In this document: positions 4,201 to 37,109 of the stretch, in pieces
Numbering within the stretch: position 1 is the first letter of the stretch
How the letters are laid out: the number at the start of each line of letters is the position of its first letter
Assembly: GCA_035526335.1 (NCBI GenBank)
Contig: DATLCN010000026.1
Coordinates: 14,765 to 78,764 of the forward strand
DNA length: 64,000 nt
Source: Acidimicrobiales bacterium
Lineage (GTDB): Bacteria > Actinomycetota > Acidimicrobiia > Acidimicrobiales > GCA-2861595
Reading direction: 5' to 3'
Notes under the pieces: model-generated
Database searches by the model: none
The model's input: only the letters and a program-made list of their open reading frames with translations
What the model was told of the DNA's origin: nothing
Translations under genes and position numbers: made by a program

Positions 4201-4368
4201 CTCGAGGTTCCCGACGACGTGGCTGTCGCCGTCCAGGAGCATCGTTCCCACGTCATGGCCGAGACCCTGAGCATCGAGCTCGCCTTCGGCGACCTGGTCG
4301 AAGGGCACCGCTACCAACTACCCGACGGCCGCGCCGTAGGGGTGGGCGTGACGCTGATCGAACCCTGA
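1270..4368 (+). CDS. ileS: isoleucine--tRNA ligase (long, actinobacterial/eukaryote-like type)
   Basis: 1032 aa with a HIGH-type motif (PHYGHLLTG), a KMSKS-like segment ([10 protein letters not shown]) and the WCWEC/CWR zinc-type segments of class Ia IleRS. GC3 is high throughout. Confidence 0.97.
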
Positions 4369-4408
4369 CGCCGCCCGGCGGGTCGGGGTCCCCGCCGCCG
4401 GAGCGGCA

Positions 4409-9706: not shown

Positions 9707-9756
9707 GAGTTCTCCTCGTCGAGTGCCGGTGTCGGATCCGGCGGAAAGAAACCAAC

Positions 9757-9775
9757 CCTCAACATGAAGTTGAGG
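9757..9775 (-). promoter_or_regulatory. perfect 7-bp stem / 5-nt loop hairpin in the low-GC ftsQ-ftsZ intergenic leader
   Basis: CCTCAAC atgaa GTTGAGG, about 50 nt upstream of the ftsZ ATG. The role is unknown (processing or stability element, or coincidence). Confidence 0.3.
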
Positions 9776-9823
9776 TGTATACTCAGGTTGTTCAGGCCCG
9801 ACGGTCGAACATTAGCCCCATTG

Positions 9824-15271: not shown

Positions 15272-16566
15272 TTCGCCGTCAACCTCCTGACCTCTTCGCT
15301 GAAGTCCGCCCCGCGCGCGCCGTAATTGGCGTACCAGTCCTGGGACGCGCAGGCCGGCGACAGCAGCACGACGTCACCGGGCCTGGCCGCCTCGGCTGCC
15401 GACGCCACCGCCGCCCGCATCGAGGACGCGGCGGTCACCGGCACGACCCCGGCAAAGGCGGACTCGACCTCCGCGGCCGCCTCCCCGATGGCGACCACCG
15501 CACGCAGATGGTGGGCCCCCTGGCCCAGGACGCCGAGGTCGAGGCCCTTGTTGCGGCCGCCGGCGATGAGCACGACGGAGTCGAAGCCCTCGAGGGCAGC
15601 CAGCACAGCGGACGGGGTGGTGGCCTTCGAGTCGTCGTACCAGCTCACCCCTCCAGCCTCGCCCACCAGCGTCACGCGATGGGGGAGCCCCGCGAATTCG
15701 GCCAGCACGGCGGCGCAGGCCCCGACCTCGGCGCCGGCGGCCATCGCCGTGGCCGTGGCCGCCAGCGCATTGGCCACGTCGTGGGGAAGGCGCCGGCGAA
15801 GGTGCTCCACCCTGATGATGGCGCCCTGCGGACCCCTCAGCTCGCCGTTCGCGACCCGGAAGTCCGAGGAGGAGGTGGTACCGAACGTGAGGAGGCGGCC
15901 GGCCGAGGAGGCGGCGGCGTCCATCACCTCGGCATCGTCGGCGTTGGCCACCGCCACGTCGCCCCCGCCCTGACGGGCCCAGATGCGGGACTTGGCCGCC
16001 TTGTAGTGGACCATGTCCGGGTGCCAGTCCAGGTGGTCCTCGGCCAGGTTCAGCCAGGTGCCGACATGCGGGCGGAACCCGTCGGTCCAGTGGAGCTGGA
16101 AGGAGGAGACCTCGGCCACCATCACCTCGACGTCTTCGGCCACCGCGTCGACGAGGGGAAGGCCGATGTTGCCCGCGGCCACTGCGCTACGACCGCTGCG
16201 AACCAGCATCGCCGCGACCATCGTCGTCACCGTCGTTTTGCCGTTGGTCCCCGTGACGGCGACGATCCGCTTGTCGCCGGCCGACCGCCATGCCAGTTCC
16301 ACCTCGCTCACGATGGCGACGCCGGCGGCGCCGGCACGGACGAGCGCGGGATGATGGGGGGGAACGCCCGGGCTTGGCACCACCAGGTCGGCACCGTCCA
16401 CGTCGGTCTCGGCACCGAGGCCGATCCCCAGCGACCCCGCCTGCCCGACCGACTTCCGGAGCGGCCCGTCCTCGATCGCGACGACCGTCCATCCCTGGGC
16501 GGCGAGGTGCCGCGCCACCGAACGTCCGGTCACACCCATGCCGATGATCACCGCCCGAGGCGCCAA
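15268..16566 (-). CDS. murD: UDP-N-acetylmuramoylalanine--D-glutamate ligase
   Basis: VIIGMGVTGRSVARHL and VAVTGTNGKTTVTTM. The start is set to TTG 16566 (GTG 16551 is the alternative), just downstream of the mraY stop. The track ORF is over-extended. Confidence 0.9.
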   Translation of the reverse strand: MAPRAVIIGMGVTGRSVARHLAAQGWTVVAIEDGPLRKSVGQAGSLGIGLGAETDVDGADLVVPSPGVPPHHPALVRAGAAGVAIVSEVELAWRSAGDKRIVAVTGTNGKTTVTTMVAAMLVRSGRSAVAAGNIGLPLVDAVAEDVEVMVAEVSSFQLHWTDGFRPHVGTWLNLAEDHLDWHPDMVHYKAAKSRIWARQGGGDVAVANADDAEVMDAAASSAGRLLTFGTTSSSDFRVANGELRGPQGAIIRVEHLRRRLPHDVANALAATATAMAAGAEVGACAAVLAEFAGLPHRVTLVGEAGGVSWYDDSKATTPSAVLAALEGFDSVVLIAGGRNKGLDLGVLGQGAHHLRAVVAIGEAAAEVESAFAGVVPVTAASSMRAAVASAAEAARPGDVVLLSPACASQDWYANYGARGADFSEEVRRLTAK

Positions 16567-16577
16567 ACCCGCCGTCC

Positions 16578-17612
16578 TCAGTCCAGGACACCGAGGGAGA
16601 TGAAGTCGGCGTAGAAGAGCCCGAGGGCCAGGGCGGTGCACAGGCCGGCCAGTATCCAGAAGCGGATGATCACCGTGGTCTCGGGCCAGCCGGCCATCTC
16701 GAAGTGGTGGTGGATGGGCGCCATGCGGAAGACCCGCCGGTGGAAGATCCGGAAACTGGCGACCTGCACGATCACCGACAACGTCTCGAGCACGTAGAGG
16801 CCGCCGATCACCGGAAGCAGCAGCTGGACGTTCATGACCAGAGCCAACGCGCCGAGGCCGGCGCCGATGGCCAACGACCCGGTGTCGCCCATGAATATGC
16901 GGGCGGGAGCGGCGTTCCACCACAGGAAGCCCGCGCAGGCGCCGGTCAACGAGATGGACATGAGGGCGAGGTCCAGGGCCTGCGGCACCTGGTACACGTC
17001 GAAATGGCGGAACTGCCAGAACCCGATGATGGCGAGGGCGGAGAACGAGAAGGTCGCCGAGCCGGCGGCCAGGCCGTCGAGGCCGTCGGTGAGGTTCACG
17101 GCGTTGGACGTGCCGATCAGGACGATGACGGCCCAGACGACCCAGCCGGCGGTGCCGAGGTCGATGCCGATGGAGTCGAACCGCGTGAAGGAGAGGTCGG
17201 TCTTCACGTCCGCCAGCTTCAGGGCCAGCAGGGCGAAGCCACCCGCCACCACGAGCTGGCCGGCGATCTTGGCCCGCTTGTTGAGGCCCAGACTTCTCTG
17301 GTGGCGAACCTTGATCCAGTCGTCGCCGAGGCCGACCAGGCCGGCGCCGGCAACGGCCACGGCCACCAGCAGCCCGCCACGGGTGAAGATGGCCCCAGAG
17401 CGCAGGTGGCCGGCCAGATAGCCGGCGAGGGCGCCGATGACGATCATGAGGCCGCCCATGGTCGGCGTGCCTGCCTTTGTGATGTGGCCCTGGGGACCGT
17501 CCTCCCGGATGTGCTGGCCGATGCCCTGGGCCTGGAGCCAGCGGATGAACACCGGCGTGGCGGTGAGGGCCACCAGCAGGGCAACACCGCCGGCGAGCAG
17601 GAGCGCGATCAC
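16578..17612 (-). CDS. mraY: phospho-N-acetylmuramoyl-pentapeptide transferase
   Basis: KAGTPTMGG, NAVNLTDGLDGLA and FMGDTGSLAIG...MAPIHHHFE. Confidence 0.95.
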   Translation of the reverse strand: MIALLLAGGVALLVALTATPVFIRWLQAQGIGQHIREDGPQGHITKAGTPTMGGLMIVIGALAGYLAGHLRSGAIFTRGGLLVAVAVAGAGLVGLGDDWIKVRHQRSLGLNKRAKIAGQLVVAGGFALLALKLADVKTDLSFTRFDSIGIDLGTAGWVVWAVIVLIGTSNAVNLTDGLDGLAAGSATFSFSALAIIGFWQFRHFDVYQVPQALDLALMSISLTGACAGFLWWNAAPARIFMGDTGSLAIGAGLGALALVMNVQLLLPVIGGLYVLETLSVIVQVASFRIFHRRVFRMAPIHHHFEMAGWPETTVIIRFWILAGLCTALALGLFYADFISLGVLD

Positions 17613-19075
17613 GGGGCGACCCTCTTCACCGCTGCTTCCCGTGCCACCTCACGGTCGTCGAAGGGAAAGGTCCGGTCCCCCACCGTCTGGCCCGTCTCGT
17701 GTCCCTTGCCGGCCACGACCACCACGTCGCCCGGGGCGGCGGTGGCGACGGCTTGCCCGATCGCCGAGCGCCGGTCCGGCTCCACCACCAGCGCGGACTC
17801 GAAGGCGGTGCCCACACCGCTGCGGACCTGGTCGATGATGGCCGACGGGTCCTCGTCACGAGGGTTGTCGGAGGTCAGAACCGCCCTGTCGGCCAGGCGG
17901 GCGGCCACCTCGCCCATGAGCGGCCTCTTCCCGGGATCCCGTCCTCCACCGCAGCCGAACACGACCGTGAGGCGGCCGGTGCCCGCCATGGTGCGGGCCG
18001 CCGTGAGCACCTGCTCGAGGGCGTCGGGCGTGTGCGCGTAATCCACCACGACGGCAAACGGCTGGCCAGCGTCGATCCGCTCGAAGCGACCCGGCACCCG
18101 GTCCACCGCGCTCAGCCCGGCGGCCACCGTCTCGGCCGGAACGCCCATCTCCCGCGCCATCGTCGCCGCGCAGAGGGCGTTGGCCACGTTGAAGCGCCCA
18201 CCCACCGAGAGACGGACATGGTGGCCGGCCCAGCCGAAGCTGCTCGTGGCCGTGTCCGGATCGACGACCAGATCCGAGGCGTCGGCCAGGCTGAACGGGA
18301 CCAGGCGCAGCCCGTCCCGCTGCAGGAGGCGCTGACCGTAGGGGTCGTCGGCGTTGACCACGCCGACCTCCGCCCGTCCGGCGTCGAACAGCGAGGCCTT
18401 GGCGTGGAAGTAGGTCTCCATGTCGCCGTGGTAGTCGAGGTGGTCCTGGGTCAGGTTGGTGAACCCGACGGCGGCGAAGTGGACCGAATCGGCCCGGTGC
18501 TGGGCGAGGCCGTGGGACGAGACCTCGATGGCCACGGCCCGACGGCCGGCGCCGAGCTCGGCGGCCAGCCGGGCGTGGAGCTCCGGAGCCTCCGGCGTGG
18601 TGCGCAGCGCGCCGATGGTGCCGACCACCGCGGTGCTCCAGCCGTGGGTCTCGAGCACCGACCGGAGCATGAATGCGGTGGTTGTCTTCCCGTTGGTGCC
18701 GGTGATGCCCGCCACCAGCAGGGAGCGCGAGGGATGACCGTGGAGTGCGGCGGCGGCCGCGGCCAGGGCGACCCGGGCGTCGGCCACTACGAGCTGGACC
18801 ACCTCGGGGCCGAGATCCAGCGCCCGCTCGCAGACGACGGCGACGGCACCCGCAGCGACGGCGGCAGCGGCGTGATGGTGGCCGTCGGTGGCGGTCCCCC
18901 GGATGCAGAAGAACAGCGCACCGGATGCCGCGGCCCTCGAATCAGCCGTGACTCCTGTCACCACAACTCCACCCGGATCACCGATGACGTCGAGGACCTC
19001 GACCTCCTCGACGAGGTGGTCGAGGCGCGCCGGCGCCGGCGGAGGGCCCCTCAGGGCGGAGGAAACGGCGGGCAC
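17609..19075 (-). CDS. murE: UDP-N-acetylmuramoyl-L-alanyl-D-glutamate--2,6-diaminopimelate ligase
   Basis: GITGTNGKTTTAFM, VDYAHTPDALE and the DAP-recognition motif SDNPRDEDP. These identify MurE rather than MurF. Confidence 0.9.
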   Translation of the reverse strand: MPAVSSALRGPPPAPARLDHLVEEVEVLDVIGDPGGVVVTGVTADSRAAASGALFFCIRGTATDGHHHAAAAVAAGAVAVVCERALDLGPEVVQLVVADARVALAAAAAALHGHPSRSLLVAGITGTNGKTTTAFMLRSVLETHGWSTAVVGTIGALRTTPEAPELHARLAAELGAGRRAVAIEVSSHGLAQHRADSVHFAAVGFTNLTQDHLDYHGDMETYFHAKASLFDAGRAEVGVVNADDPYGQRLLQRDGLRLVPFSLADASDLVVDPDTATSSFGWAGHHVRLSVGGRFNVANALCAATMAREMGVPAETVAAGLSAVDRVPGRFERIDAGQPFAVVVDYAHTPDALEQVLTAARTMAGTGRLTVVFGCGGGRDPGKRPLMGEVAARLADRAVLTSDNPRDEDPSAIIDQVRSGVGTAFESALVVEPDRRSAIGQAVATAAPGDVVVVAGKGHETGQTVGDRTFPFDDREVAREAAVKRVAP

Positions 19076-19084
19076 GGGCCGACC

Positions 19085-21163
19085 TTACGGCGCGGTGTCT
19101 GGGGAGCCCGGCGCCGGGTTGGGCGGCGCTTCCGGCTTCTTGGCCGCCGGTCGCGTGGCTTGTGCCGGCGCCGGTGACACCCCACCGACCTCACCGACGG
19201 TGCGGGCGTTGTCCGGTGACGCCTTGGGTACGGCAGCCGCCGCGGTCGGCACTGCGGCCGCCGGCGGAGGCAGCACCTGGAACTGGCGCAGGGCGTAGCG
19301 GGCCACCTGGGCGAACACCGGCGCGGCCACCAGCCCACCGAAGATCGGAGTGGGCTCGTCGAGGATGACGATGGCGCTCAGCTCGGGGCGCTCGGAGGGG
19401 ACGAAGCCGACGAAGCTCGAGACATAGGCGCCGGCCTTGTAGCCCCGGATGCCCTCGAGCGGCTTCCGCGCCGTGCCCGTCTTGCCGGCCACGGTGTAGC
19501 CGTCGACGGCGGCGAGCGTTCCCGTGCCGACGCGGACCACCTCGTTGAGCATGGCCGTCATCTGCTGCGCGGTGCGGGCCGAGACCACCCGGTGCCGGGC
19601 CGAGGGGGGCGTCGGGTGGCGCCGGCCCTCGCTGTCCACGGTGGCCTTGATCAGCTTCGGAGCCACGTAGGTGCCGGCGTTGGCGACGGTGTTGTAGGCG
19701 GCCAGCATCTGCATCCCGGTGACGGCCAGCCCCTGGCCGATGGCCACGGTGCCGATGGACGTGCCCGACCACTTCTTGGGGTCGAGCAGGATTCCGGCCG
19801 ATTCACCGGGGAACCCCAGACCGGTCTTGGAGCCGAGGCCGAAAGCGCGGACGTAGCGGTCGATCTTCTGCTTGCCCAGTTGCTGGGCGATCATGATCGA
19901 CCCGACGTTGGAGGAGTTGGCGACGATCTCGGTAACCGACCACCGCTCCACCGGATGGGGGTCGTGCTCGGAGAAGACGTGGTCCGCCACCTTGATCGTG
20001 CTCGGCACCACCAGCGAGTCCTCCGGATGGATGATGCCCTCCTCGATGGCCCCCGAGATCGTGATCACCTTGTTGACCGAACCGGGCTCGAAGACGTTGG
20101 TGACGGCCATGTTCTTGGTGGCCTGCCGGGGTGGTCCACCCTTGGGGTCGGCCGTGAGATTGGCCAGGGCCAGAACCTCGCCGGTGCGGGTCTGCATGAC
20201 GATCGCCATCCCTCCCTTGGCGTTGGACTTGACGATCTCGGCGGACAGCGCCCGCTCGGCCTCGTACTGGACGGCACGGTCCAGGGTCAGCACGAGGTCG
20301 TCGCCCTTGACCGGCGACGCCAGCTTGCGCACACCGCCCGGTATGTCCCGACCCTTCGGGTCCCGCTCCACCACCGTCTGGCCCGGCCGTCCCGCCAGTT
20401 GCTCCTCGAACTGGCGCTCCAGGCCCGCCAGCCCGTCGTTGTCGGTGCCCACCCGACCCACCACGGGTGCGGCAAGGTCGCCGGCGGGCAGGAACCGCTC
20501 GGGCTCCGGTATGAGGCTGACGCCGGGTAGCTGCAGCGCCTTGACCTGGGCGGCCACGTTGTCGTCGACCTTGCGGGAGAGGTACACGAACGCCTTGTCC
20601 TCGGTGAGCAGGGCCTGGAGTACCGGGGCCTTTCTGCCCAGCAGTGGCGCCAGCGCGTCGGCGACGGCCATGGGGTCGTTGACCAGACGGGGGTTGGCCA
20701 CGACGGTCGTCTGGCTGATGCTGAGGGCGAGGTCCCGGCCGTGGCGATCGAACAGCGAGCCTCGCTCGGCCGGGAGGTCGACGGTGCGGATGCGCTGGGT
20801 CTCCCCGAAAGCGGTGTAGCGCTTGGCCGAGAAGCCCTGGACCTGGACGAGACGGGCACTGAGTGCCCCGAACACGACGAGCATCGCGACCAGGACACCG
20901 ATCAGCCGGCGCCGGGGACCGGAGGTTCGGCGTCGGGCCGGGGTGCGGCGGGGTGCCGGGGGCGCTGCCCGGGGTGCCGGCCGGGATCGACTGGAGCTCT
21001 TCGGGCTGGGCGGCGCCGGCGGCACGGCGCGGGTCCGCCCGGAGGACCTTCTGTTCGCGGGCAGGGCCGGCCGGCCGGCGCGGGTCGTGCGGGCTCGGCC
21101 GGAGGAGACACGCTGTGCCTGCAGAACCGGCGGCCTCGGCCGCCGCCTGGACCCTACGGTCAC
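19085..21163 (-). CDS. ftsI: class B penicillin-binding protein (FtsI-type transpeptidase)
   Basis: SxxK (GSVNK), SxN (NSSNVG) and KTGT (AGKTGTA) motifs. It has a long Arg/Pro-rich cytoplasmic N-terminus, one TM helix and a Pro/Ala-rich C-terminal tail. The GTG start overlaps the ftsL stop. Confidence 0.9.
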   Translation of the reverse strand: MTVGSRRRPRPPVLQAQRVSSGRARTTRAGRPALPANRRSSGRTRAVPPAPPSPKSSSRSRPAPRAAPPAPRRTPARRRTSGPRRRLIGVLVAMLVVFGALSARLVQVQGFSAKRYTAFGETQRIRTVDLPAERGSLFDRHGRDLALSISQTTVVANPRLVNDPMAVADALAPLLGRKAPVLQALLTEDKAFVYLSRKVDDNVAAQVKALQLPGVSLIPEPERFLPAGDLAAPVVGRVGTDNDGLAGLERQFEEQLAGRPGQTVVERDPKGRDIPGGVRKLASPVKGDDLVLTLDRAVQYEAERALSAEIVKSNAKGGMAIVMQTRTGEVLALANLTADPKGGPPRQATKNMAVTNVFEPGSVNKVITISGAIEEGIIHPEDSLVVPSTIKVADHVFSEHDPHPVERWSVTEIVANSSNVGSIMIAQQLGKQKIDRYVRAFGLGSKTGLGFPGESAGILLDPKKWSGTSIGTVAIGQGLAVTGMQMLAAYNTVANAGTYVAPKLIKATVDSEGRRHPTPPSARHRVVSARTAQQMTAMLNEVVRVGTGTLAAVDGYTVAGKTGTARKPLEGIRGYKAGAYVSSFVGFVPSERPELSAIVILDEPTPIFGGLVAAPVFAQVARYALRQFQVLPPPAAAVPTAAAAVPKASPDNARTVGEVGGVSPAPAQATRPAAKKPEAPPNPAPGSPDTAP

Positions 21164-21663
21164 CGGCCGCTCGCGAGGGAACGCTTGACGCGTGAGTAGT
21201 CGTCCTCCTCGGCGGCGGAGCCCTGGTCCCTGTCGTCGGAGCCGTCGGCGGGGGCCGACACCGCTCCGGTGGGAGACAGGTAGGTGACGCTCGGGGGAGG
21301 CACCATCCCCAGGCGCTCCTGGGCGGCGGCGACGATGCGGGACGGGGACTCGAGCTCGGCGACCTTCAGTCGCAGCCGTTCGTACCGGGACTGCTCGCTG
21401 GCGGCGCGGGCCCGGAGGACGTCCAGACGGAACTGTCCCTGGGTCAACATCACGTGCGAAGCCACCAGTCCGAAGAGGCTCACGAGCACGCCCACAGAAA
21501 CGAGCAGGGTGACGAGCCTGGCCCGGCGAGGACGCCGGCGGGGCGCCGGCAGGACCACCCGGAGCGGCGGCTTCGTACCCTCCTCGGACGGCGACCGGCG
21601 ATGGGGTACGGACGGCGGCGCCGGCGGCGCGGCGGCCTGGCGACTGGACACCGGAGCCGTCAC
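21160..21663 (-). CDS. ftsL: FtsL-like septum-formation initiator (single-pass membrane, coiled-coil)
   Basis: Basic N-terminus, TM helix LVTLLVSVGVLVSLFGLVA, then a coiled-coil (RLDVLRARAASEQSRYERLRLKVAELESPSRI). Canonical position between rsmH and ftsI. Confidence 0.6.
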   Translation of the reverse strand: MTAPVSSRQAAAPPAPPSVPHRRSPSEEGTKPPLRVVLPAPRRRPRRARLVTLLVSVGVLVSLFGLVASHVMLTQGQFRLDVLRARAASEQSRYERLRLKVAELESPSRIVAAAQERLGMVPPPSVTYLSPTGAVSAPADGSDDRDQGSAAEEDDYSRVKRSLASGR

Positions 21664-21736
21664 CGGTGCACCCGCCGGCCCCGGTGACGGACTTTCAACG
21701 TCACGACGATCACGCCGGCCGCGCCGGTCGGGTCCC

Positions 21737-22669
21737 TCACGGCAGGCGCTCGCAGACCCGGAGACGGGCGCTCTCGGCCCGGCGGTTGGCCGCCACCTCG
21801 GCGGGAGACGGCTTGCGTGAACCCCTGGTCAGGAGCTTCACCAGGGGTTCGGCCCCGCAGACGCAGGGAAGGGTGGGCGGGCACACGCAACCACCGGAAG
21901 CGGCGCGGGCGAAGCGCTCCTTGACGATCCTGTCCTCGCCGGAGTGGTAGGCGAGCACGACGCAGCGGCCATGGGGGACCAGCAGCGCCACCGCTGCGTC
22001 CAGGGCCGGGCCCAGGACGTCGAGCTCGTCGTTCACCGCGATGCGGACGGCCTGGAACACGCGCCGGGCGGGATGACCGCCGGTTCGTCTCGCCGCTGCG
22101 GGGATGGCGTCACGTACGACCTCGGCCAGCTCGACCGTCGTCGTCAGGGGACGCCGTTCGACGATGCGCCCGGCGATCCTCCGGGCGAACCGGCGCTCAC
22201 CACTCTCGGCGATCAGCCTGGCCAGCTCGTGCTCGGTGGCGCCGTTGACCACGTCGGCCGCCGTCCGGCCGGTGGAGCGGTCCATCCGCATGTCGAGGGG
22301 GGCATCGAGGCGGTAGGAGAAGCCGCGCCCGGCCTGGTCCAACTGCGGGGAGCTGACGCCGAGGTCGAACAGCACGCCGCTGACCCGTACACCGAGCCGC
22401 TCCGCCACGTCGGCGATGCGGTCGAAGCGGGCATGTTCGAGCCCGACCACACGATCCCCGTGCTCGTCCAGCGTCGAGGCCGCGGCCTCTAGGGCCGCCT
22501 CGTCACGGTCGATGCCCAACAGGCGGATGTGCGGGTGGGCCCGTAGAAGGGCGCGGGCATGGCCCCCTCCTCCCAACGTGGCGTCTACCACCACGCCGGC
22601 GGGAACGGGCGCCATCAAGGAGACGATCTCCTCGACCATCACCGGACGGTGCTCGAATGCCCGGCTCAT
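21737..22669 (-). CDS. rsmH: 16S rRNA (cytosine1402-N4)-methyltransferase
   Basis: HRPVMVEEIV, DATLGGGGHA, FDLGVSSPQLD and SYHSGEDRIVK-type (AYHSGEDRIVK) motifs. ATG 22669 is preceded by a GGGAGG SD. The track ORF 21737..23227 is over-extended. Confidence 0.95.
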   Translation of the reverse strand: MSRAFEHRPVMVEEIVSLMAPVPAGVVVDATLGGGGHARALLRAHPHIRLLGIDRDEAALEAAASTLDEHGDRVVGLEHARFDRIADVAERLGVRVSGVLFDLGVSSPQLDQAGRGFSYRLDAPLDMRMDRSTGRTAADVVNGATEHELARLIAESGERRFARRIAGRIVERRPLTTTVELAEVVRDAIPAAARRTGGHPARRVFQAVRIAVNDELDVLGPALDAAVALLVPHGRCVVLAYHSGEDRIVKERFARAASGGCVCPPTLPCVCGAEPLVKLLTRGSRKPSPAEVAANRRAESARLRVCERLP

Positions 22670-22788
22670 CCGCAGCCTCCCGACCGGGGCAATGGCACCG
22701 GGGGCGGAGAGGTGGTCATCGACCTCACCAGTCGAGAGGCAGCGCATGGGCCGGGCATGTGTCGCGGTCGCGGTCGCGTTCGGGTCCC

Positions 22789-23208
22789 CTACTCGTCGTC
22801 TTCCTCGGTCAGCCGGCGCTCGGCGGCGGCCACCTTCTCGACCCAGACCTCGGGGTTCCAGAGCTCGACCCGGTCCATGGCTCCGTTCACCAGAACCGCA
22901 TCCACGAGCCGGGCGTACTCCCGGAGGTACGGGGCGATGGCCAGCCGGCCCTGGCGGTCGACGTCGACCTCCTCGGTGCCCGCCGCCCACAGCCGGGCCA
23001 GGTTGCGCTCGTCCCGGCTCCCGTTCTGGGCCTCCTCCATGAGCTTGGACTGCGCCTCGAAGGCCTCCGTCGTCCAGAGCGCCAGGCACCGCCCGCGGAA
23101 CTTGGTGAGGAAGGCACCCCGCTCGAAGGACTGGCGGAACTTCGCCGGAAGGATGACCCGACCCTTGGGGTCCAGCGAGTGCTCGTGGCGCCCGAAGAAC
23201 CTGGCCAT
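22789..23208 (-). CDS. mraZ: transcriptional regulator MraZ
   Basis: MARFFGRHEHSLDPKGRVILPAKFR ... DRQGRLAIAPYLREYA shows the two DxxxR SpoVT/AbrB-like repeats. Confidence 0.95.
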   Translation of the reverse strand: MARFFGRHEHSLDPKGRVILPAKFRQSFERGAFLTKFRGRCLALWTTEAFEAQSKLMEEAQNGSRDERNLARLWAAGTEEVDVDRQGRLAIAPYLREYARLVDAVLVNGAMDRVELWNPEVWVEKVAAAERRLTEEDDE

Positions 23209-30408: not shown

Positions 30409-30786
30409 TCAGGTGTCGTCCCTCTTGAAACGCTGACGCAGGCGCTGGCGGGTGTCGCCCAGCACGCTCGGGAAGCCGTGCTCGCGGACGGTGCGGCTGA
30501 CGTCCTTCCATCCGGCCCGCCCCATCTTGCGCAGGTTGGCCTCGAAGACCAGCGCGGAGCCCAGCATCAGCAGGAAACCGAAGAACCCCACGAAGAGGTT
30601 GGACGCGAAAGAGGCGACCAACAGCACCAGGCCGGCGAAGAATCCGAGGGCGGCCCACTTGCAGTTGCGGCCGGCGTGGCGATAGAGCGAAGTCTCGGAG
30701 ACGCCCTTGGCGAAAGCAGGATCGTGCTCGTAGAAGCTGCGCTCGATCTCATGGAGGATGCGCTGCTCGTCTTCCGATAGGGGCAA
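30409..30786 (-). CDS. DUF3040-domain membrane protein
   Basis: From TTG 30786 the protein reads MPLSEDEQRILHEIERSFYEHDPAFAK..., the canonical DUF3040 N-terminus, followed by two TM helices. Confidence 0.75.
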   Translation of the reverse strand: MPLSEDEQRILHEIERSFYEHDPAFAKGVSETSLYRHAGRNCKWAALGFFAGLVLLVASFASNLFVGFFGFLLMLGSALVFEANLRKMGRAGWKDVSRTVREHGFPSVLGDTRQRLRQRFKRDDT

Positions 30787-30997
30787 CTCCGGGACCCTTC
30801 TGCGCCACTGAATCCGACGTCCCATCTTCGCGCACCGCGCCAAGGTCAACAACGCGAGAGCGCGTCCGGAACACGGGGGACAAACGGCGTCCGGGCCCTG
30901 ACCGGCGGCCGGGCCGGGCCGGGATCGTGCAGAACCTCTACCGACGCGTAGAAGGAGCCCACGCCGGCGTGGAGGATCGACCTCTCCGGACCCGTCG

Positions 30998-33900
30998 TCA
31001 CAGGACCTTCGGCACCTGATCGGTGAGGCGCCGGCGCCGGGCGGCCACCGCGCCGCCGGCCACGAGCAGCGCGAGGCCGATCAGGCTCAGCACGGGCCCC
31101 GGGCCGAGCCCCGACCGGCCGCTGGATCGGTGCCGCGGAGCGGGCAGGGGCCGGATGGTCCCTCCGCGGGCATGAGGCTCGAGGACCCGGAAGATTCCCC
31201 ACAGGCCCGCCTCACGGTAGGGCTCGCGATGGTCACCCCAGAGGTAGTCGCCGGCCCGGTGGCCGCGGCCGCCGGCGCCGCCCTCCAGATTCGCCGTCAC
31301 CACGTCGAGGCCACCGAGCGGCACCGAGCTCAGCATGTTGGTGCCTCGCCGTCCCGGTTCCATGGCCCAGCGGTGGCCCTCGACGCTGAACACCTGTGAC
31401 TGCTCGCTCCACGGCGCCAGGGCGTGGATGCGCACCGGATCGCCGGCGAAGGCCTCCAGGAGCGGGGTGGACGGCAGCGGCCGCCCCGTGGTGGAGGACG
31501 AGTACACGGTGGCCGCATCGGGATCGGAGTTCAAGCGGCCCTTGAGTGGCTCGTTCCGGTAGTTCACGCCGACGGTTCCCTGCACGTTGGTCGTGTAGGG
31601 CATCCGGTGCGTGCCGATCGACGCATCCTCGTCCTGGAACAGCAGGGTGAAGTCGCGGTAGGCCGGCCCTGAAGGAGGCTGCACCACCACGTTCCACCCG
31701 GAGCGACCGCCCATGTCGGTCCCCGACGCCGCGTCCCGGTAGGTGGAGCCGGCCGGCCCGACGACGATGGCGCCGTACAGGCCGAGTGCCGAGTTGGCCA
31801 CCACGTCCCCGCCGTCGCGCACCACCGACACCGTTTCACCGACCTCCGGCGAGGCGTAGAACGTGGAGGTGCGGACCTCACCCGGTGCCACCGTCTGGTC
31901 CGGATTGAACCCGGCGGCCACACCTCCGGATTCCAGGGGGTCCGAAGCGAGGAGGTCGCAGCGCAGGGAGACGGATCCGGTGGCGACGGCGTTTCGGAGA
32001 TGCAGCTTCAGGCACTCGCCCACCCCCACGTGCAGCACGAGGGGTTCCGCGGGACGCTGGCCGCTGCGCACGGCCCTGGCGTCCTGGGCGAGGACGAAGA
32101 GGCGGCCGGGTCTGCCCCCCAGCATGGGCAGAGGCGCCTCAATGGCCACGACGTCGAACTCCCGCACGGGGGCGGCCGGCGGGCAGACCGCCGCCGGCGG
32201 ACGGGGCGGAACCTCGTGTCCCGGGAGGGGCAGGAGGGCGGGACCGCTGTCGGGCGCAGCCTCCGATGCCCGATTGCCGGGCAGGCTTCTGGCGCCGCCA
32301 CCCGGGGCGGCGTCACCCTGGCGCCCGGGCAGCACGCGCAGGAGCCCCCAGCTGCCCTCGCGCAGCTTCACCGACCGACCGTTCCCGTAGATGTAGTCAC
32401 CCGGCATCCGTTGCGGTCCTCCCGCCGCTGGCACCACCAGGTCGTAGCGCTCGGAGATGCCGAGATGGACGGTGCTCACCGGTGGGGAGCGCTGGCTCTG
32501 GGGCTCCTTGCGGAACCAGTGCCCGTCCAGGTGCCAGGTGTGCACCTCGTTGCTCGCGCTGACCAGGCTGCGCACGACCACCGGATCACCGACGTTGGCC
32601 TCGATGACCGGCGTTGCCGGGTCGCCGTGGGTGCGGCTGCTGAACACCATGGCCGGGTCGCCCTTACGACGGTCGAGGGGCTCGGCCCGGAGGTTGAGGG
32701 CGCTGCCCGTGGAGCGCCCCACGTGATTGACGGCGCTGTCGTCCTGGACGAAGGAGACCAGCTCGCGGAAGCTCCCCTTGACGTCGGCCGAGACGCGGGC
32801 GTCGGTGTGGATGTCGGCGATGGCGCCGCTGCGGATCTCCTCGCCGGTCCGGGGGTCGTGGTAGGTCGAGCCGGGCGGCTCGGACACCAGCGCGCCGAAC
32901 AGACCACGCCGCCAGGTGCCGATGGCGTTGACGTGGTCGTGGAAGTAGGCGGTGCCGAACTGCGTGTCGTCGTACCACCGGTACCGGACGAACTCGGTGC
33001 TCACGATCTCGCCCGCGGCGTGGTCGAACTCCAGCGGCTTGGAGAGGGTGACGAGGGCCCCTTCGACGGCGGTGACGGCCACCGCCTCGAACCTCTCGCC
33101 GCCGCCCATGCCGATACCGACCACCACACCGGGCTGAAGCCTCGAAGCGTCGGCCATCCTGAGCATGGCGGCGCCCGCCACGGCCGGCCGGGCCAGAGGC
33201 GCCCCCTCCAGTTGGAACGGCCGCACCGACTGCTCGAAGTTGAACCCGGAGACGACGCCGTCGCTGGCCTGGACGTCGAACTGCACGAAGTGGATGTGGG
33301 CGTTGACCTTGGAGAACCCATGGCTCTCAGGTGTGTCGGTCAGCCGGCTGGTGAGGACGACGTCGACGCAGTCCTCGCCGGCATTCGCACGAATGGCGAG
33401 CGGCCGGCGAAGGTCGGGATCGGTACGTGCCGCCGCCTCCTGCTCCTTGAGCACGAAGAGCAGCCCACCGGCGTCGACGATGCGCTCCTCCTCGTTCACC
33501 GGGATGGCGGCCTCGACGGCCTGGAGGTCGAATTTCTTCGAGTGCGACCCCGCCGGGCAGAGGCTTCCCTTGCCGTTGGCGCCCGGGACGGGAGGATCGG
33601 TGCCGTCGTGGTCCGGCTCGAGGAACGGCGAGGGCCCGTGGTTCGGCGCGAAGGGCGGACGTTTTCCCAGATGGGGGCGGAGGAACGGGAAGGCCAGCTT
33701 CCCTGTCCGGGGGTCGAAACGCAGCGGCGGCCGCTGACCGGGCGCCGGCGACCGGTAGCCGGGCCAGGCCTGGTCCGTCTCCGGTTCCCCCAGGTAGGTG
33801 TCGCCCTGCCGGCTCCAGTCGTGCACTGCCGCGTCGTAGCCGCGGGGCTGGCCCTGAGGTGGGAGCTGGCGCTCCACCCATCGCTTCATCTCGCTCTGGG

Positions 33901-35383
33901 CGATGGTGAACGGTCCGTTGGCAGACACGACGGCGGCACCCACGAGCTTTTCGGAGGTGACGGCCGGCAGTACGTGGCCCTGCCGCTCCGGCAGCTCCCG
34001 CAACGGCGGCAGGGCGTCGGTGGACGCTGAGCCGTTCTGCAGTGTGTTGTAGGTGCGCCACAGGCCCCACATGCCGGCGAAGTAGTGCTCGGCCACGTGG
34101 CAGTGGTAGAGGAAGTCGCCCACCGAACCCTGGCAGCCGCCACTCCCGCACTCGGGGACCACGTCGAACGTCTCGGAGGGGCCGAGGCTCTGGCTGTCGG
34201 TGCGCTCGGTGGACTTTGGCAGCAACGGCGGCCTCTTGTCCTCACCGGAGTCGAAGCGGGTGTCCTCGACGCCTGGCTGGCGCGGCCACCGGGTGGCACC
34301 ACCGTGGACGTGGTGGACGTGGAAGACCTCGGACCCACCGTGGACCACCCGCTGCTTGGTGGGATCGCCCAGATAGGCCCTCATCATCGGCGTGGCCGGG
34401 TCCCCGAAGGCGTAGGAGCTGTAGGCGACGGCCTCGTCGAAGGTGCCCGCACCGACAGGAGCTCTGGCCACCTGGAGGGCCAGACGATGGCCGAACGGCT
34501 CACTGCGGTAGTTGAGGGCCCGTCCGCCGGGTCGGTAAGCGCTGGTGACCGGGTCGACCAGGGGGATGCGGCGGTCGGCCGCGTCGAGCAACTGGTAGTT
34601 CTCGTGGCCGATCTCGTGGTAGTAGAGGGCGAACTCCCGGAAATCGCTGCCCGCGCCGGAGCGGATGACGGCGTCCCATCCGCTGCGCAGCGGCGCTCCT
34701 GTCCTGGGGTCGAGCCAACGGGACCCGGGCGGCTCCACCACGATCGAGCCGAACAGCCCGTGGCTGGTCTGGGCCCGGGTGTCGCCGTGGCTGTGGAGGT
34801 GGTGGGTGCCCTCCGGCTCCCCGGGATCCACCATCCACTCGTAGGTGACGGTCCGGCCCGGGCGGGCGACGGCGGCCGGATTGGTGGCGATGGCCGGCCC
34901 GCCTGATCCCGCCACGCGGAGGTCGGCTCCGTGCACGTGCAGACTGGCCGCCTCTGCGCCGGCAAGAGCGTTGCGCAGCGTGACCCGGAGGCACTCGCCC
35001 GGCAGCACCCGCAGAGTCAGCGGCTGGATGGCGTCCCCCTGGAGGCCGGCGGTGACGGCGGGCTCGCCACCGCCCGCTCGGGCGGCGGCGTTGACCGCCT
35101 CTTCAGCCCGCACCCGCCCGAGGTCCTCCTCGAGCACGAACATGCGACCCTCCGGGTCGTGGTCGAGGTAGCGGTTCACCGTGACGTCGACCGCGATGGC
35201 GGCGACGTCGTAGTCCCGCACGGGCACGGCCCGCCCACACGCCCCTTCCGGTGGGCCCGACTCCCGGCCGTCGGCAGGCGCGGTCAGCCCGAGCACCAGC
35301 AGGACGGTCGCCATGAGGGCGGTGACGCGGACCCGCTCCCGGCGAAAAGACCGGGAGCGGGTCGCCGTTGCTTGGAACCGCAT
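30998..35383 (-). CDS. giant (1461 aa) multicopper oxidase-like protein with three tandem MCO-like modules, an RR-containing signal peptide and a C-terminal TM anchor
   Basis: Module 1 has the full MCO ligand set: SLHVHG, HHLHSHGD...GLFG, FHVHHVHGG and YHCHVAEHYFAGMWG. Module 2 has AHIHF, YFHDHVN...GLFG and HTWHLDGH but no Cys motif. Module 3 retains only remnants (GHRW, GDYLWGDH...GLWG). The N-terminus is RSFRRERVRVTALMATVLLVLGLTAPA and the C-terminus is VLSLIGLALLVAGGAVAARRRR. Confidence 0.85.
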   Translation of the reverse strand: MRFQATATRSRSFRRERVRVTALMATVLLVLGLTAPADGRESGPPEGACGRAVPVRDYDVAAIAVDVTVNRYLDHDPEGRMFVLEEDLGRVRAEEAVNAAARAGGGEPAVTAGLQGDAIQPLTLRVLPGECLRVTLRNALAGAEAASLHVHGADLRVAGSGGPAIATNPAAVARPGRTVTYEWMVDPGEPEGTHHLHSHGDTRAQTSHGLFGSIVVEPPGSRWLDPRTGAPLRSGWDAVIRSGAGSDFREFALYYHEIGHENYQLLDAADRRIPLVDPVTSAYRPGGRALNYRSEPFGHRLALQVARAPVGAGTFDEAVAYSSYAFGDPATPMMRAYLGDPTKQRVVHGGSEVFHVHHVHGGATRWPRQPGVEDTRFDSGEDKRPPLLPKSTERTDSQSLGPSETFDVVPECGSGGCQGSVGDFLYHCHVAEHYFAGMWGLWRTYNTLQNGSASTDALPPLRELPERQGHVLPAVTSEKLVGAAVVSANGPFTIAQSEMKRWVERQLPPQGQPRGYDAAVHDWSRQGDTYLGEPETDQAWPGYRSPAPGQRPPLRFDPRTGKLAFPFLRPHLGKRPPFAPNHGPSPFLEPDHDGTDPPVPGANGKGSLCPAGSHSKKFDLQAVEAAIPVNEEERIVDAGGLLFVLKEQEAAARTDPDLRRPLAIRANAGEDCVDVVLTSRLTDTPESHGFSKVNAHIHFVQFDVQASDGVVSGFNFEQSVRPFQLEGAPLARPAVAGAAMLRMADASRLQPGVVVGIGMGGGERFEAVAVTAVEGALVTLSKPLEFDHAAGEIVSTEFVRYRWYDDTQFGTAYFHDHVNAIGTWRRGLFGALVSEPPGSTYHDPRTGEEIRSGAIADIHTDARVSADVKGSFRELVSFVQDDSAVNHVGRSTGSALNLRAEPLDRRKGDPAMVFSSRTHGDPATPVIEANVGDPVVVRSLVSASNEVHTWHLDGHWFRKEPQSQRSPPVSTVHLGISERYDLVVPAAGGPQRMPGDYIYGNGRSVKLREGSWGLLRVLPGRQGDAAPGGGARSLPGNRASEAAPDSGPALLPLPGHEVPPRPPAAVCPPAAPVREFDVVAIEAPLPMLGGRPGRLFVLAQDARAVRSGQRPAEPLVLHVGVGECLKLHLRNAVATGSVSLRCDLLASDPLESGGVAAGFNPDQTVAPGEVRTSTFYASPEVGETVSVVRDGGDVVANSALGLYGAIVVGPAGSTYRDAASGTDMGGRSGWNVVVQPPSGPAYRDFTLLFQDEDASIGTHRMPYTTNVQGTVGVNYRNEPLKGRLNSDPDAATVYSSSTTGRPLPSTPLLEAFAGDPVRIHALAPWSEQSQVFSVEGHRWAMEPGRRGTNMLSSVPLGGLDVVTANLEGGAGGRGHRAGDYLWGDHREPYREAGLWGIFRVLEPHARGGTIRPLPAPRHRSSGRSGLGPGPVLSLIGLALLVAGGAVAARRRRLTDQVPKVL

Positions 35384-35385
35384 GC

Positions 35386-36633
35386 TCAGGTGACCTTGAC
35401 GGTGCCTTCCATGTCCGGGTGGATCAGGCAGATGTACTTGAAGGTACCTGCTTCGGTGAAGGTGCGGGTGTAGACGAGCTGCGCCTCCGACAGCGGGAGC
35501 CCGCTGCTCATGAAGCCCTTGCCGTCGTACTTGCCACCGTCGACCTTGACCTGGGGCGGCGGACCCTCGTGTCCCTCGCCCTCTCCCTCCGCCGCCTTGG
35601 GCGGATCGGGGATCTTCGGGCTGTTGGCCGGGGCGAAGGACTTCACGTTGGCGCTGATGGTGCCGTCATCGGCCCTGAGTATGAAGGGGCGGGCATCCTC
35701 GGGGGCGTTGAAGGCGATGGTGTGGAACCCGTTCACCGTCCAGGTGACCGAGTCGCCCTTCTTGACGGTTAGTGCCGCGGGGAAGACGTTGATGCCCTCT
35801 GTGGGAACCTGGTCCTCCTCCTCGGGGAAGGCGCCCGCCTCCGCCTTCTTCGGGTCGGTCATGATGGCGACCTTGTCGGCGGCCGGCTTGGCCTTGGCCA
35901 CCAGGTCACCCAGTTCCTTCTCGCCGGCCGCCTTCACGTCATCGGCGCTCGGCACGTCGGCGCCCTTGGCCACGACTGTGACCTCTTCGGACATCTCGGT
36001 GCCATGAACGGCGCAGGCGAACACGTAGGTGCCGGGCTTCAGGTCGTCCGCCAGCTTGACCTTGAACGTGTCCTCGTTGGCCAGGAAGCCGCTGTTCACG
36101 AACCGCTCCTTGCCGGTGAAGGTGTCCGGCAGCTCCTGCTGTTCCTTGGAGCAGGCCTCGGTGGTGGGCGGGTCCTCGGTGGCGCTGAAGCACGGCTGCA
36201 GACCGGCCTGCACGAAGAGGTCGTCCGCCCCCTTCGACTCCTCGTTGAAGGTCCCGGGAAGCTTCTTGAACAGGGCGTCCAGCTCCGGCGGCGGCGGGCC
36301 CTCCTGCTTGGGGTCCGCCTTCTCCGCCTTCTCCGCCGCCTTGGCCACCTCGCTGACGAGGGTGCCGCCCATGACCGTGTGGACGGCGCCGGTGAACTCG
36401 CCGGTGAACTCGATGCTGTCGCCGGGTCTGGCCGTCAGCTTGGTGGGGAAGTACGAGATCCACGAGACGTTGGGCTCGCTCTTGGCGTCCACCCGCACCG
36501 GGAACGTCTGGGGCCCTGAGGACTTCTCGGTGGTGGTGTCGCTGGGGATGACGCCACCGTTGTCGTCGTCGTCGCCGCATGCGGCGGCGAGAACCGCCAC
36601 CACGATCATCGCTGTGGCCAATCGTCTTCTCAT
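35386..36633 (-). CDS. lipoprotein with tandem cupredoxin (blue-copper) domains
   Basis: ATG 36633 is preceded by AAGGGAG. The signal peptide plus lipobox is MRRRLATAMIVVAVLAAAC. There are two type-1 Cu ligand sets, FACAVHGTEM and (GFHTIAF)...YICLIHPDMEG, plus an N-terminal cupredoxin-like domain without Cys. The stop lies 2 nt before the MCO start. Confidence 0.8.
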   Translation of the reverse strand: MRRRLATAMIVVAVLAAACGDDDDNGGVIPSDTTTEKSSGPQTFPVRVDAKSEPNVSWISYFPTKLTARPGDSIEFTGEFTGAVHTVMGGTLVSEVAKAAEKAEKADPKQEGPPPPELDALFKKLPGTFNEESKGADDLFVQAGLQPCFSATEDPPTTEACSKEQQELPDTFTGKERFVNSGFLANEDTFKVKLADDLKPGTYVFACAVHGTEMSEEVTVVAKGADVPSADDVKAAGEKELGDLVAKAKPAADKVAIMTDPKKAEAGAFPEEEDQVPTEGINVFPAALTVKKGDSVTWTVNGFHTIAFNAPEDARPFILRADDGTISANVKSFAPANSPKIPDPPKAAEGEGEGHEGPPPQVKVDGGKYDGKGFMSSGLPLSEAQLVYTRTFTEAGTFKYICLIHPDMEGTVKVT

Positions 36634-36779
36634 CCGCACTCCCTTTGGGATCAGCACCGGGCCCACCCCGGCTGGCGCGGGACAGTAGCTGATGGAGGTC
36701 CTCGGGGGAAGCATCCCGTCTGTATTTGTTTCACGATGCTGACGGCGTGACCTGCCCCAGGTTTCCCTACGATGCGGCA

Positions 36780-37109
36780 GTGCCGACAGCCGAGACGGAC
36801 GACCACGATCGGCCTCTTTCCGCCCTCCCGTCACCAGGAGCCCGTGTCGTGGCGTTCGCCGCCATCCTGGTGGGAGGACTGTGCGGAGCGCTCATCGGGT
36901 CGTCGTTCGTGGCACTCCAGTGCGAGCGGGGCTGTGACACCAACCGCGGCGTGGGGGCCATCGTCGGTGGGCTCATGGCCGCCGCTGGTGTGGCCGTGGT
37001 CGCCGTGCTCGTGCTCCGGGCCATGGGCGAGTGGAGCCGGGTCAACGACGGCGACGGCCCAGGTGGTGCCGGCGCGGCCGATGCCGGCGCGGGACCGCTC
37101 AGCCGGTGA
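36780..37109 (+). CDS. small hypothetical two-TM membrane protein
   Basis: Hydrophobic segments VVAFAAILVGGLCGALIG and AIVGGLMAAAGVAVVAVLVL. The start is uncertain (TTG 36726, GTG 36747 or GTG 36780). No recognisable family. Confidence 0.35.
   Translation: MPTAETDDHDRPLSALPSPGARVVAFAAILVGGLCGALIGSSFVALQCERGCDTNRGVGAIVGGLMAAAGVAVVAVLVLRAMGEWSRVNDGDGPGGAGAADAGAGPLSR

Follow-up and report, generated by a model that had tools for sequence, protein, structure and literature searches.

The window analysed here is a stretch of 64,000 nucleotides (nt) from an Acidimicrobiales bacterium (assembly GCA_035526335.1, contig DATLCN010000026.1, forward-strand positions 14,765 to 78,764). Between its positions 30,998 and 36,633, the minus strand carries two adjacent genes for predicted extracytoplasmic copper proteins. 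Gene 1 encodes a lipoprotein with two cupredoxin domains, called di-cupredoxin below, and gene 2 encodes a multicopper oxidase (MCO) of 1461 amino acids (aa). By homology and ligand pattern, gene 2 very probably specifies an O2-reducing oxidase of the MnxG family, and the di-cupredoxin is probably its functional redox partner. The overall explanation that we favour, with slightly less than even confidence, is an extracytoplasmic MnxG-type metal oxidase with a di-cupredoxin relay in the accessory place of MnxE and MnxF. Mn(II) as the substrate is a possibility held with more reserve.

An initial annotation, made by a model from the letters of the window, had drawn two minus-strand genes with only 2 nt between them. 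Both open reading frames (ORFs) were borne out by their translations and by their GC content at third codon positions (~0.88 in each), which is that of other real genes in this window of ~71% GC. They were further confirmed by identities in NCBI. The gene 1 product is 100% identical to protein P0121, annotated as 'hypothetical protein', and the gene 2 product is 100% identical to protein P0001, a 'multicopper oxidase domain-containing protein', each from an Acidimicrobiales metagenome-assembled genome (MAG). The gene 1 ATG, at 36633, is held within a longer minus-strand ORF (35386-36834). The 2-nt spacing between the gene 1 stop codon (TGA) and the gene 2 ATG is consistent with co-translation, and the two genes are probably co-transcribed and translationally coupled. 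No Rfam RNA element was detected between 30000 and 38000 (E ≤1), and no riboswitch or leader in the 465-nt region upstream of gene 1. A promoter scan returned no sigma-70-like site and a terminator scan gave matches only at chance level, both scans being uninformative for an actinobacterium of 71% GC.

The gene 2 product matched MnxG of Bacillus sp. PL-12 (9bxa_A, 1227 aa) over its full length in a phmmer search (E = 8.6e-115, 388 bits). The match consisted of five to six collinear stretches spanning query residues 56-1130, plus off-diagonal matches between repeats. Statements made here on the MnxG structure are based on alignments and on the PDB title of entry 9bxa. The internal repeat of gene 2 corresponds to three tandem modules, of which the C-terminal one matches all three MnxG modules. 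Pfam recognised Cu-oxidase_3 (PF07732) at aa 113-219 (46.1 bits, cut-off 21) and Cu-oxidase_2 (PF07731) at aa 917-960 (30.1 bits, cut-off 20.4). The very large, three-module MCO of the initial annotation was thus recovered from the Pfam matches and the internal repeat. MnxG, one of the comparators named there, proved to be the right one, with a whole-length match to the solved Bacillus enzyme. A structural model of aa 45-1060 (predicted local distance difference test score, pLDDT, 63) gave 9bxa_A as the first Foldseek match (E = 5e-47), ahead of ceruloplasmin and coagulation factors V/VIII. The Foldseek ranking and the internal repeat, with a model of this pLDDT, would place gene 2 in the six-domain MCO fold class. 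Judged by homology and ligand pattern, it appears to belong to the MnxG-type six-domain MCO family, below the NCBIfam equivalog threshold and without MnxE/F.

Several features outside the copper sites are also family-wide. Within the MCO family, conservation is highest in the proline-rich segment that joins modules 1 and 2, and this segment is partly common to MnxG. A beta-rich insertion in domain 3 occurs throughout the family with a length of 74-105 aa. It is not matched by Pfam and has a pLDDT of ~64-94 in the model; it is absent from Bacillus MnxG, where the alignment runs directly from residue 557 to 558. Three cysteine pairs (49/131, 609/672 and 1067/1124), one per module, are conserved, and all three are lost together in one Pirellulaceae homologue. 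The first cysteine of each pair opens its module, and the second lies in the first domain of that module. We read the pairs as disulfides, one in each module, as would be expected outside the cytoplasm.

After MnxG, the next PDB sequence matches of gene 2 were two-domain laccases (E ~1e-6), and such laccases are the next-best matches in sequence and structure after MnxG and ceruloplasmin. This bears on a role as a laccase-like oxidase of organic compounds (phenolics, humics, pigments), with the di-cupredoxin as mediator, and the hosts of the family are soil and groundwater heterotrophs. However, the laccase similarity is confined to single cupredoxin domains at ~30 bits. Laccases are not known to need a protein partner. 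Membrane tethering of both proteins, as predicted here, would also be odd for polymeric substrates. A laccase-type role, like copper detoxification discussed below, is less likely, and we consider it highly improbable.

The copper ligands of gene 2 follow the MnxG pattern. In domain 2, the L3 motif HVHHVH (aa 355-360) provides H355, H358 and H360, and the L4 motif HCHVAEHYFAGM (aa 427-438) provides H427-C428-H429, H433 and M438, with Cys428 as the type-1 copper cysteine. Domain 3 holds HIH (aa 696-698) and HDH (aa 815-817), which are the probable trinuclear partners of domain 2. These canonical ligands are invariant in alignments of 13 and 33 relatives, and also in a more distant clade of 43-47% identity. 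The L3 and L4 ligands align one-to-one with MnxG, which also keeps HIH and HDH in domain 3. The MnxG residue opposite H433 is an alanine because the protein in entry 9bxa carries the type-1 copper site mutation H340A. Since MnxG has only the HxH pairs of domain 3, the functional trinuclear cluster is placed between domains 2 and 3. Gene 2 would thus have its type-1 copper in domain 2 and trinuclear ligands from domains 2 and 3. The absence of copper sites from structural models had been named at the outset as a way in which the proposal could fail; their ligands were found to be conserved in the alignments of both proteins.

Additional histidine clusters are conserved elsewhere in gene 2. The two HxH pairs of domain 1, HVH (H149/H151) and HSH (H197/H199), are invariant and kept even in relatives of 43% identity, and MnxG has HFQ there. 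The domain 4 motif HTWHLDGH (H948/H951/H955) is conserved down to 43% identity, as are H1337 and H1385 of domain 6, with H1320 mostly kept. No cysteine-containing type-1 copper motif is present in module 3. The two remaining pseudo-threefold interfaces could hold additional metal sites formed by the histidine clusters of domains 1, 4 and 6.

Export signals, which the initial annotation had proposed for both proteins, are present on both. Gene 2 starts with a signal-like region containing the motif SFRRERV, followed by the hydrophobic stretch TALMATVLLVLGLTAPA. Among 120 MCO homologues, an N-terminal hydrophobic segment was found in 83 and a C-terminal helix with a basic tail in 65, in line with the C-terminal helix and RRRR first noted for gene 2. 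The proposed Tat-like (twin-arginine translocation) signal fared less well. Two consecutive arginines and a hydrophobic stretch do exist, but an arginine pair occurs within the first 45 residues of only 50/120 homologues, and orthologues of 84% identity read CRER where gene 2 reads RRER. Export by the Tat route is therefore possible but unsupported. In many homologues from Chloroflexota, the N-terminus has a lipobox and the C-terminal anchor is missing. Membrane tethering thus looks like a conserved property reached in two ways, and is plausible for gene 2. A sortase-type C-terminal sorting signal was also considered and rejected, as no LPxTG-like motif precedes the helix.

The gene 1 product begins with MRRRLATAMIVVAVLAAAC, which ends in the lipobox VLAAAC; its Cys19 is near-invariant in the alignment. 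A lipobox was found in 84/110 homologues, which supports the lipoprotein assignment made initially. Pfam Copper-bind was matched with 32 bits (cut-off 21.2). The AlphaFold2 model, built with 28 homologues, was of good quality (pLDDT 90, predicted template modelling score, pTM, 0.85). It contains two cupredoxin domains joined by a long helix, and not three as had been annotated; a third domain was ruled out by the model. Insertions of 90-110 aa break up both domains. Domain 1 has a helical insertion (aa 91-145) and an invariant C148/C161 pair, and domain 2 has a long loop insertion. The two complete type-1 copper ligand sets of the initial annotation are present and conserved. In domain 1, they are H85/C207/H210/M214 (C207-x2-H210-x3-M214), with H210 replaced by Asp in 3/28 sequences. 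In domain 2, H304/C402/H405/M408 are invariant in the 28 sequences and form an amicyanin-like C-x2-H-x2-M loop.

Gene 1 falls below the equivalog cut-offs of the known blue-copper carriers (plastocyanin 42.5 vs 87.85, amicyanin 35.7 vs 110.2, halocyanin 21.8 vs 93.8). Its family comprises 363 representatives at E ≤1e-30 in a library clustered at 50% identity. PDB sequence matches at E ≤1 were blue-copper domains, mainly of amicyanin, plastocyanin and NirK, together with chance matches, and no Mnx accessory chain was among them. Foldseek gave plastocyanin and auracyanin with probability 1.0 and target-normalised TM-scores of 0.5-0.73, which refer to single-domain matches. The whole-chain structural neighbours were NirK and MCO enzymes to which a cupredoxin is fused (9cck, 6hbe, 2dv6).

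These structural neighbours are relevant to another explanation, in which the MCO oxidises cupredoxin and serves as an alternative terminal oxidase. The reduced di-cupredoxin would itself be the reductant, charged by the respiratory chain or by an extracytoplasmic dehydrogenase, and no metal substrate would be involved. Transfer from a blue-copper protein to the type-1 site of an MCO and on to O2 is established MCO chemistry and the thermodynamically natural direction. The fused cupredoxin domains of NirK and MCO enzymes are built-in electron donors or entry modules. Both proteins are predicted at the membrane, and stand-alone di-cupredoxin paralogues exist, as would be expected for a general electron carrier of the membrane surface. 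Nevertheless, an enzyme of 1461 aa with six predicted domains, extra histidine clusters and insertions would be elaborate for the oxidation of a small protein. The nearest characterised relatives are metal oxidases, and no quinol-oxidising or dehydrogenase partner is conserved beside the pair. We consider a terminal oxidase unlikely, but it is the chief alternative.

The two proteins are linked by genomic association. A genome scan yielded 80 loci encoding MCO relatives, in which partners were searched by tblastn with gene 1 and by ORF clustering. Adjacency was counted from MCO boundaries set by collinear high-scoring segment pairs, in loci flanked on either side by 1.5 kb or more. MCOs with at least 52% identity were found in Acidimicrobiales and other Actinomycetota, Chloroflexota (Dehalococcoidia, SAR202), Dormibacterota, Limnocylindria and Rokubacteria. 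In 29 of the 35 well-flanked loci of this group, the di-cupredoxin gene was directly adjacent, within 1 kb of the MCO, and in three more it was within 2.3 kb. The remaining three had no di-cupredoxin by tblastn, although a weak member of the family lies 15 nt upstream in one of them. Three arrangements of the di-cupredoxin gene relative to the MCO were seen: upstream and co-oriented (34 loci), downstream and co-oriented (8) and downstream and convergent (5); some loci hold two copies. The other neighbours of the pair differed between lineages. Three gene orders and differing neighbours indicate that the linkage is maintained and not merely inherited. Two independent genomic-context look-ups agreed with the conservation of the pair, which had initially been put forward as a point to check and now extends over several phyla.

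In the clade of 43-47% identity, a di-cupredoxin gene was found in 0/14 loci. This clade includes Nitrospirota (with Candidatus Manganitrophaceae), Methylomirabilis, Proteobacteria, Trueperaceae and Pirellulaceae. In three of its loci, from Methylomirabilis and from MAGs labelled Rhodospirillaceae and Enterobacteriaceae, two tandem genes for di-haem proteins of the CCP/MauG type (CCP, cytochrome c peroxidase) follow directly downstream of the MCO, and this gene pair may correspond to the di-cupredoxin, with haem in place of copper. These loci thus keep another redox protein beside the MCO, which supports the idea of a lineage-specific redox partner. As separate observations, two MnxG-like genes are near neighbours on the Nitrospirota contig CAZOFJ010000005.1 (L078/L081). 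In the Manganitrophaceae locus L080 (6001-16400), tblastn matches run well past the first MCO gene, in agreement with the 'two novel MCOs' reported for this family (PMC9040806).

A further explanation, on which the same clade bears, is energy-conserving metal lithotrophy by the gene pair. The MCO would oxidise Mn(II) or Fe(II), perhaps at its extra histidine clusters, which have no type-1 copper, and electrons would leave through the di-cupredoxin to the respiratory chain in a rusticyanin-like manner instead of passing straight to O2. According to Yu et al. 2022 (PMC9040806), lithotrophic use of the Manganitrophaceae MCOs would need a periplasmic electron carrier and not O2, and the Manganitrophaceae enzymes (L073, L079, L080) are 43% identical to gene 2. 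The present MCO is genetically linked to a conserved protein that resembles a carrier and has two type-1 copper sites, di-haem proteins occupy the equivalent position in the distant clade, and histidine sets beyond the canonical site are conserved. However, the type-1 and trinuclear O2-reducing site is fully conserved, and intramolecular transfer to O2 would compete with an exit route. The Manganitrophaceae homologues lack the di-cupredoxin, and no respiratory genes are linked to the pair. Soil Acidimicrobiales, SAR202 and the other host lineages are not known for lithotrophic Mn oxidation. On balance, metal lithotrophy is improbable.

A more specific form of this idea is that the di-cupredoxin is the missing extracytoplasmic carrier that takes Mn(II) or Fe(II) electrons from an MnxG-type oxidase to the respiratory chain, so that they no longer go to O2 only. 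We rate it as very improbable because the Manganitrophaceae genomes are without di-cupredoxin and the O2-reducing site is intact here. If true, MCO-based metal oxidation would be energy-conserving, abundant uncultured Actinomycetota, Chloroflexota and SAR202 would be cryptic metal lithotrophs or mixotrophs, and the histidine clusters of domains 1, 4 and 6 would be metal-oxidation or exit sites.

Gene content around the pair also bears on copper homeostasis. In that case, the MCO would be a cuprous oxidase like CueO or PcoA, and gene 1 would handle copper like PcoC, CopC or CopI. Pairs of an MCO with a cupredoxin-fold partner do occur in the Pco and Cop systems, and the N-terminal domain of gene 2 has weak matches to the CueO and CopA models. 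A gene for a YtkA-like putative copper chaperone, which may be involved in copper loading, is found near the pair in four loci of Limnocylindria and Chloroflexota (L024 at 3619-4506, L026, L029, L057). Against this, the CueO, CopA and ascorbate oxidase models match one gene 2 domain each with ~25-30 bits (CueO 29.8 vs 525, CopA 25.5 vs 479); the CueO-like function, which the initial annotation had named as one that would count against its proposal, is therefore not indicated. The MCO has six predicted domains instead of three (~500 aa expected), and gene 1 has cysteine-containing type-1 electron-transfer sites instead of Met/His copper-trafficking sites. No copB/C/D, P-type copper ATPase or CsoR/CopY genes are located near the pair in the window, where the context is housekeeping, nor are they conserved across 81 related loci. 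A function in copper homeostasis is very unlikely.

Under the favoured explanation of a metal oxidase with a di-cupredoxin relay, both proteins would be exported to the outer face of the cytoplasmic membrane, with the di-cupredoxin held by its lipid anchor and the MCO by its C-terminal tail anchor. The type-1 copper of domain 2 (H355/C428/H433/M438) would take up single electrons and pass them through the H427-C428-H429 bridge to the trinuclear cluster, formed by H358, H360, H427 and H429 of domain 2 and H696, H698, H815 and H817 of domain 3. There, O2 would be reduced to water. The reductant would most likely be a metal cation, with Mn(II) as the first candidate, by homology with the sole biochemically characterised relatives. 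The two type-1 copper centres of the di-cupredoxin would act as a one-electron relay docked to the MCO, most probably feeding its type-1 site. A role in metal oxidation or extracellular electron transfer would fit the gene pair, and we agree with the initial annotation that the substrate cannot be read from the sequence. The homology, the ligand sets, the export and anchor signals and the conserved linkage of the genes are shown, whereas the physical complex of both proteins, the direction of electron flow, the substrate and the trinuclear placement are what we infer. In Bacillus, MnxG requires the copper-binding proteins MnxE and MnxF, which may be redox active (PMC5622069).

A number of points weigh against this explanation. 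Gene 2 has only ~22-35% identity to Bacillus MnxG, and its best NCBIfam match, the MnxG equivalog NF041487, reached 119.1 bits vs a cut-off of 3100. The model is of low confidence and covers domains 1-4, and the copper sites are assigned at the sequence level. The extra histidine clusters and the domain 3 insertion have no counterpart in MnxG, so the chemistry may differ. Apart from single blue-copper domains, the di-cupredoxin is unrelated in sequence to PDB entries, and its replacement of MnxE/F is therefore an analogy only. A few MCO loci (L031, L041) are without di-cupredoxin. The initial annotation had called gene 1 a dedicated carrier; it is less so than proposed, as paralogues were found far from any MCO, one of them in a MAG that also carries a linked pair. 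Functional readings of this MCO clade would all be drawn from homology, and a preprint on sand-filter metagenomes reported that homology poorly predicts the function of these MCO genes (10.1101/2024.12.25.630300).

The flanks of the window are housekeeping. On one side are the division and cell wall (dcw) cluster, MraZ, DUF3040 and a MoxR-associated DUF58/transglutaminase pair. On the other side are genes for PIG-L, a beta-eliminating lyase, inositol monophosphatase, phosphofructokinase (PFK), NrdR and LexA, and glycolysis genes also belong to the housekeeping context. Beyond the di-cupredoxin, conserved MCO neighbours reflect lineage-specific synteny only, for example ABC transporter genes in Dehalococcoidia. 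In this class, a family of ~380-aa proteins without Pfam match occurs in ~7 copies per locus just past the MCO and cupredoxin genes (L038:11628-12776; paralogues in L028, L033, L036, L039, L049, L052 and L055). A small ORF divergent from gene 1 (Table 1) encodes two predicted membrane helices flanking a conserved C-x3-C (LQCERGCD). Protein homologues of 69-72% identity occupy the same position, upstream of the cupredoxin gene, in two related Acidimicrobiales MAGs (L004, L005); it had no Pfam match, and no homologue was found in the more distant loci. Its product may be a small membrane partner or that of an unrelated conserved gene.

Table 1 Features of the gene pair and its surroundings. Positions refer to the window, except for the last three rows, where they refer to the locus named.
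Feature	Position	Strand	Basis or remark
Gene 1, di-cupredoxin lipoprotein	35386..36633	-	415 aa, stop included; ORF translation, Pfam, AlphaFold2, NCBI identity
Ribosome-binding site AAGGGAG	36639..36645	-	5 nt 5' of gene 1 ATG; direct sequence reading
Signal peptide and lipobox MRRRLATAMIVVAVLAAAC	36577..36633	-	Cys19, predicted lipidated residue
Cupredoxin domain 1 of gene 1, aa 43-220	35974..36507	-	AlphaFold2 secondary structure, conservation, Foldseek
Long inter-domain helix of gene 1, aa 230-256	35866..35946	-	AlphaFold2, pLDDT >95
Cupredoxin domain 2 of gene 1, aa 264-414	35392..35844	-	Conservation, AlphaFold2, amicyanin PDB sequence matches
Spacer GC	35384..35385	-	2 nt, between gene 1 TGA and gene 2 ATG
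Gene 2, MnxG-like, predicted six-domain MCO	30998..35383	-	1461 aa, stop included; ORF translation, Pfam, NCBIfam, PDB 9bxa match, Foldseek
N-terminal signal-like region of gene 2	35270..35383	-	RSFRRERVRV, then hydrophobic TALMATVLLVLGLTAPA
Module 1 (domains 1-2), aa 49-450	34034..35239	-	Alignment to MnxG, invariant motifs
Domain 1 HVH, H149/H151	34931-34939	-	
Domain 1 HSH, H197/H199	34787-34795	-	
Domain 2 L3 motif, aa 355-360	34304-34321	-	
Domain 2 L4 motif, aa 427-438	34070-34105	-	
Proline-rich inter-module segment, aa 451-605	33569..34033	-	Invariant H571, H582
Module 2 (domains 3-4), aa 606-1020	32324..33568	-	MnxG alignment, conservation
Domain 3 HIH, aa 696-698	33290-33298	-	
Domain 3 beta-rich insertion, 74 aa, aa 724-797	32993..33214	-	MnxG alignment gap
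Domain 3 HDH, aa 815-817	32933-32941	-	
Domain 4 HTWHLDGH	32519-32542	-	
Module 3 (domains 5-6), aa 1065-1405	31169..32191	-	Aligns to all three MnxG modules
Domain 6 histidines, aa 1320-1385	31229-31426	-	
C-terminal hydrophobic helix, then RRRR, aa 1431-1452	31028..31093	-	Predicted tail anchor
DUF3040 gene	30409-30852	-	145 nt downstream of MCO, same strand
HNH endonuclease gene, 168 aa	24023-24529	-	Between dcw/MraZ and DUF58-transglutaminase genes; odd insertion
dcw cluster: FtsZ, FtsW, MraY, MurF, a penicillin-binding protein, MraZ	8609-23208	-	Typical actinobacterial
Small ORF	36726-37109	+	Divergent from gene 1; ~10 nt overlap with PIG-L 3' end
Di-haem CCP/MauG pair	L068:4982-7449		Distant MCO clade
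Di-haem CCP/MauG pair	L070:10683-13250		Distant MCO clade
Di-haem CCP/MauG pair	L075:10505-13011		Distant MCO clade

Large 'MnxG-like' oxidases often serve as metagenome marker genes for manganese oxidation. In this family, understanding is limited to the Bacillus enzyme, with genetic support for the MnxG of Pseudomonas. The branch delineated here is widespread and uncharacterised, and it occurs in Actinomycetota and Chloroflexota of soil, groundwater and the deep ocean. It is set apart from the Bacillus enzyme by its extra conserved histidine clusters and by a linked two-site blue-copper protein instead of MnxE/F. This calls for caution in labelling these genes simply 'Mn oxidase'. For expression and assays, the pair offers a concrete target of two proteins. 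It also makes an old question testable, namely whether metal oxidation by an MCO is coupled to the electron-transport chain by a dedicated carrier.

Relatives of the oxidase have been recorded before, including 29 'BaMnxG homologs' in Actinobacteria (bioRxiv 2022.11.10.515945), a Nitrospinae MnxG among the abundant oxidoreductases of ocean metaproteomes (PMC9477243) and mnxG in Nitrospira MAGs (10.1101/2024.12.25.630300). A literature search found no paper on the di-cupredoxin partner or on its pairing with an MnxG-like MCO, in keeping with the initial view that the pair is not a characterised system.

The closest known system is Mnx of Bacillus sp. PL-12 (MnxG with MnxE3F3), which oxidises Mn(II) to MnO2. 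Gene 2 is homologous to its MnxG over the full length and, like it, has three probable two-domain modules, a type-1 HCH…H…M motif with L3 in domain 2, HxH pairs in domain 3 and a partly common proline-rich segment. In both systems, a gene for a small redox or copper-binding accessory protein directly precedes that of the oxidase. The two differ in that gene 2 is ~240 aa longer and has two extra invariant HxH pairs in domain 1 and the 74-aa insertion in domain 3. A predicted N-terminal signal and C-terminal tail anchor set gene 2 apart from Bacillus MnxG, a protein of the spore coat, and in place of MnxE/F gene 2 is accompanied by a lipoprotein of 415 aa that has two cupredoxin domains with type-1 copper sites. 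MnxG of Pseudomonas putida GB-1 (NF041487) belongs to the same broad family of large MCOs, and its model matches gene 2 in six stretches. However, the model has 1894 positions vs 1461 aa, and gene 2 is not a member of this equivalog. The MCOs of Manganitrophaceae and other Nitrospirota, uncharacterised like gene 2, are 43% identical over the full length and keep all His/Cys ligand sets and the domain 3 insertion, as in gene 2. Tandem MCO copies occur among their loci, and those compared have no adjacent di-cupredoxin, in contrast to the gene 2 locus (no Nitrospinae locus was compared).

Ceruloplasmin and the A domains of coagulation factors V/VIII probably share with gene 2 the six cupredoxin domains that arose by triplication of a two-domain unit (Foldseek probability 1.0), at an identity of ~10%. 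In ceruloplasmin, the trinuclear site is located between domains 1 and 6, and type-1 copper is found in domains 2, 4 and 6. In gene 2, by contrast, a type-1 site with cysteine occurs only in domain 2, with domain 3 as the probable source of its trinuclear partners.

Gene 1 shares the cupredoxin fold and the His…Cys-x2-His-x2/3-Met site with amicyanin, plastocyanin, auracyanin and halocyanin, of which auracyanin and halocyanin are also membrane-tethered. It differs from these single-domain carriers by having two domains in one lipoprotein, with long insertions and a long helix, and by its scores below their equivalog cut-offs. A blue-copper domain together with a multicopper enzyme is also known from the Nitrosopumilus MCO (9cck) and Hyphomicrobium NirK (2dv6), but there it is fused and single, whereas gene 1 provides a separate two-site lipoprotein encoded beside a predicted six-domain oxidase.

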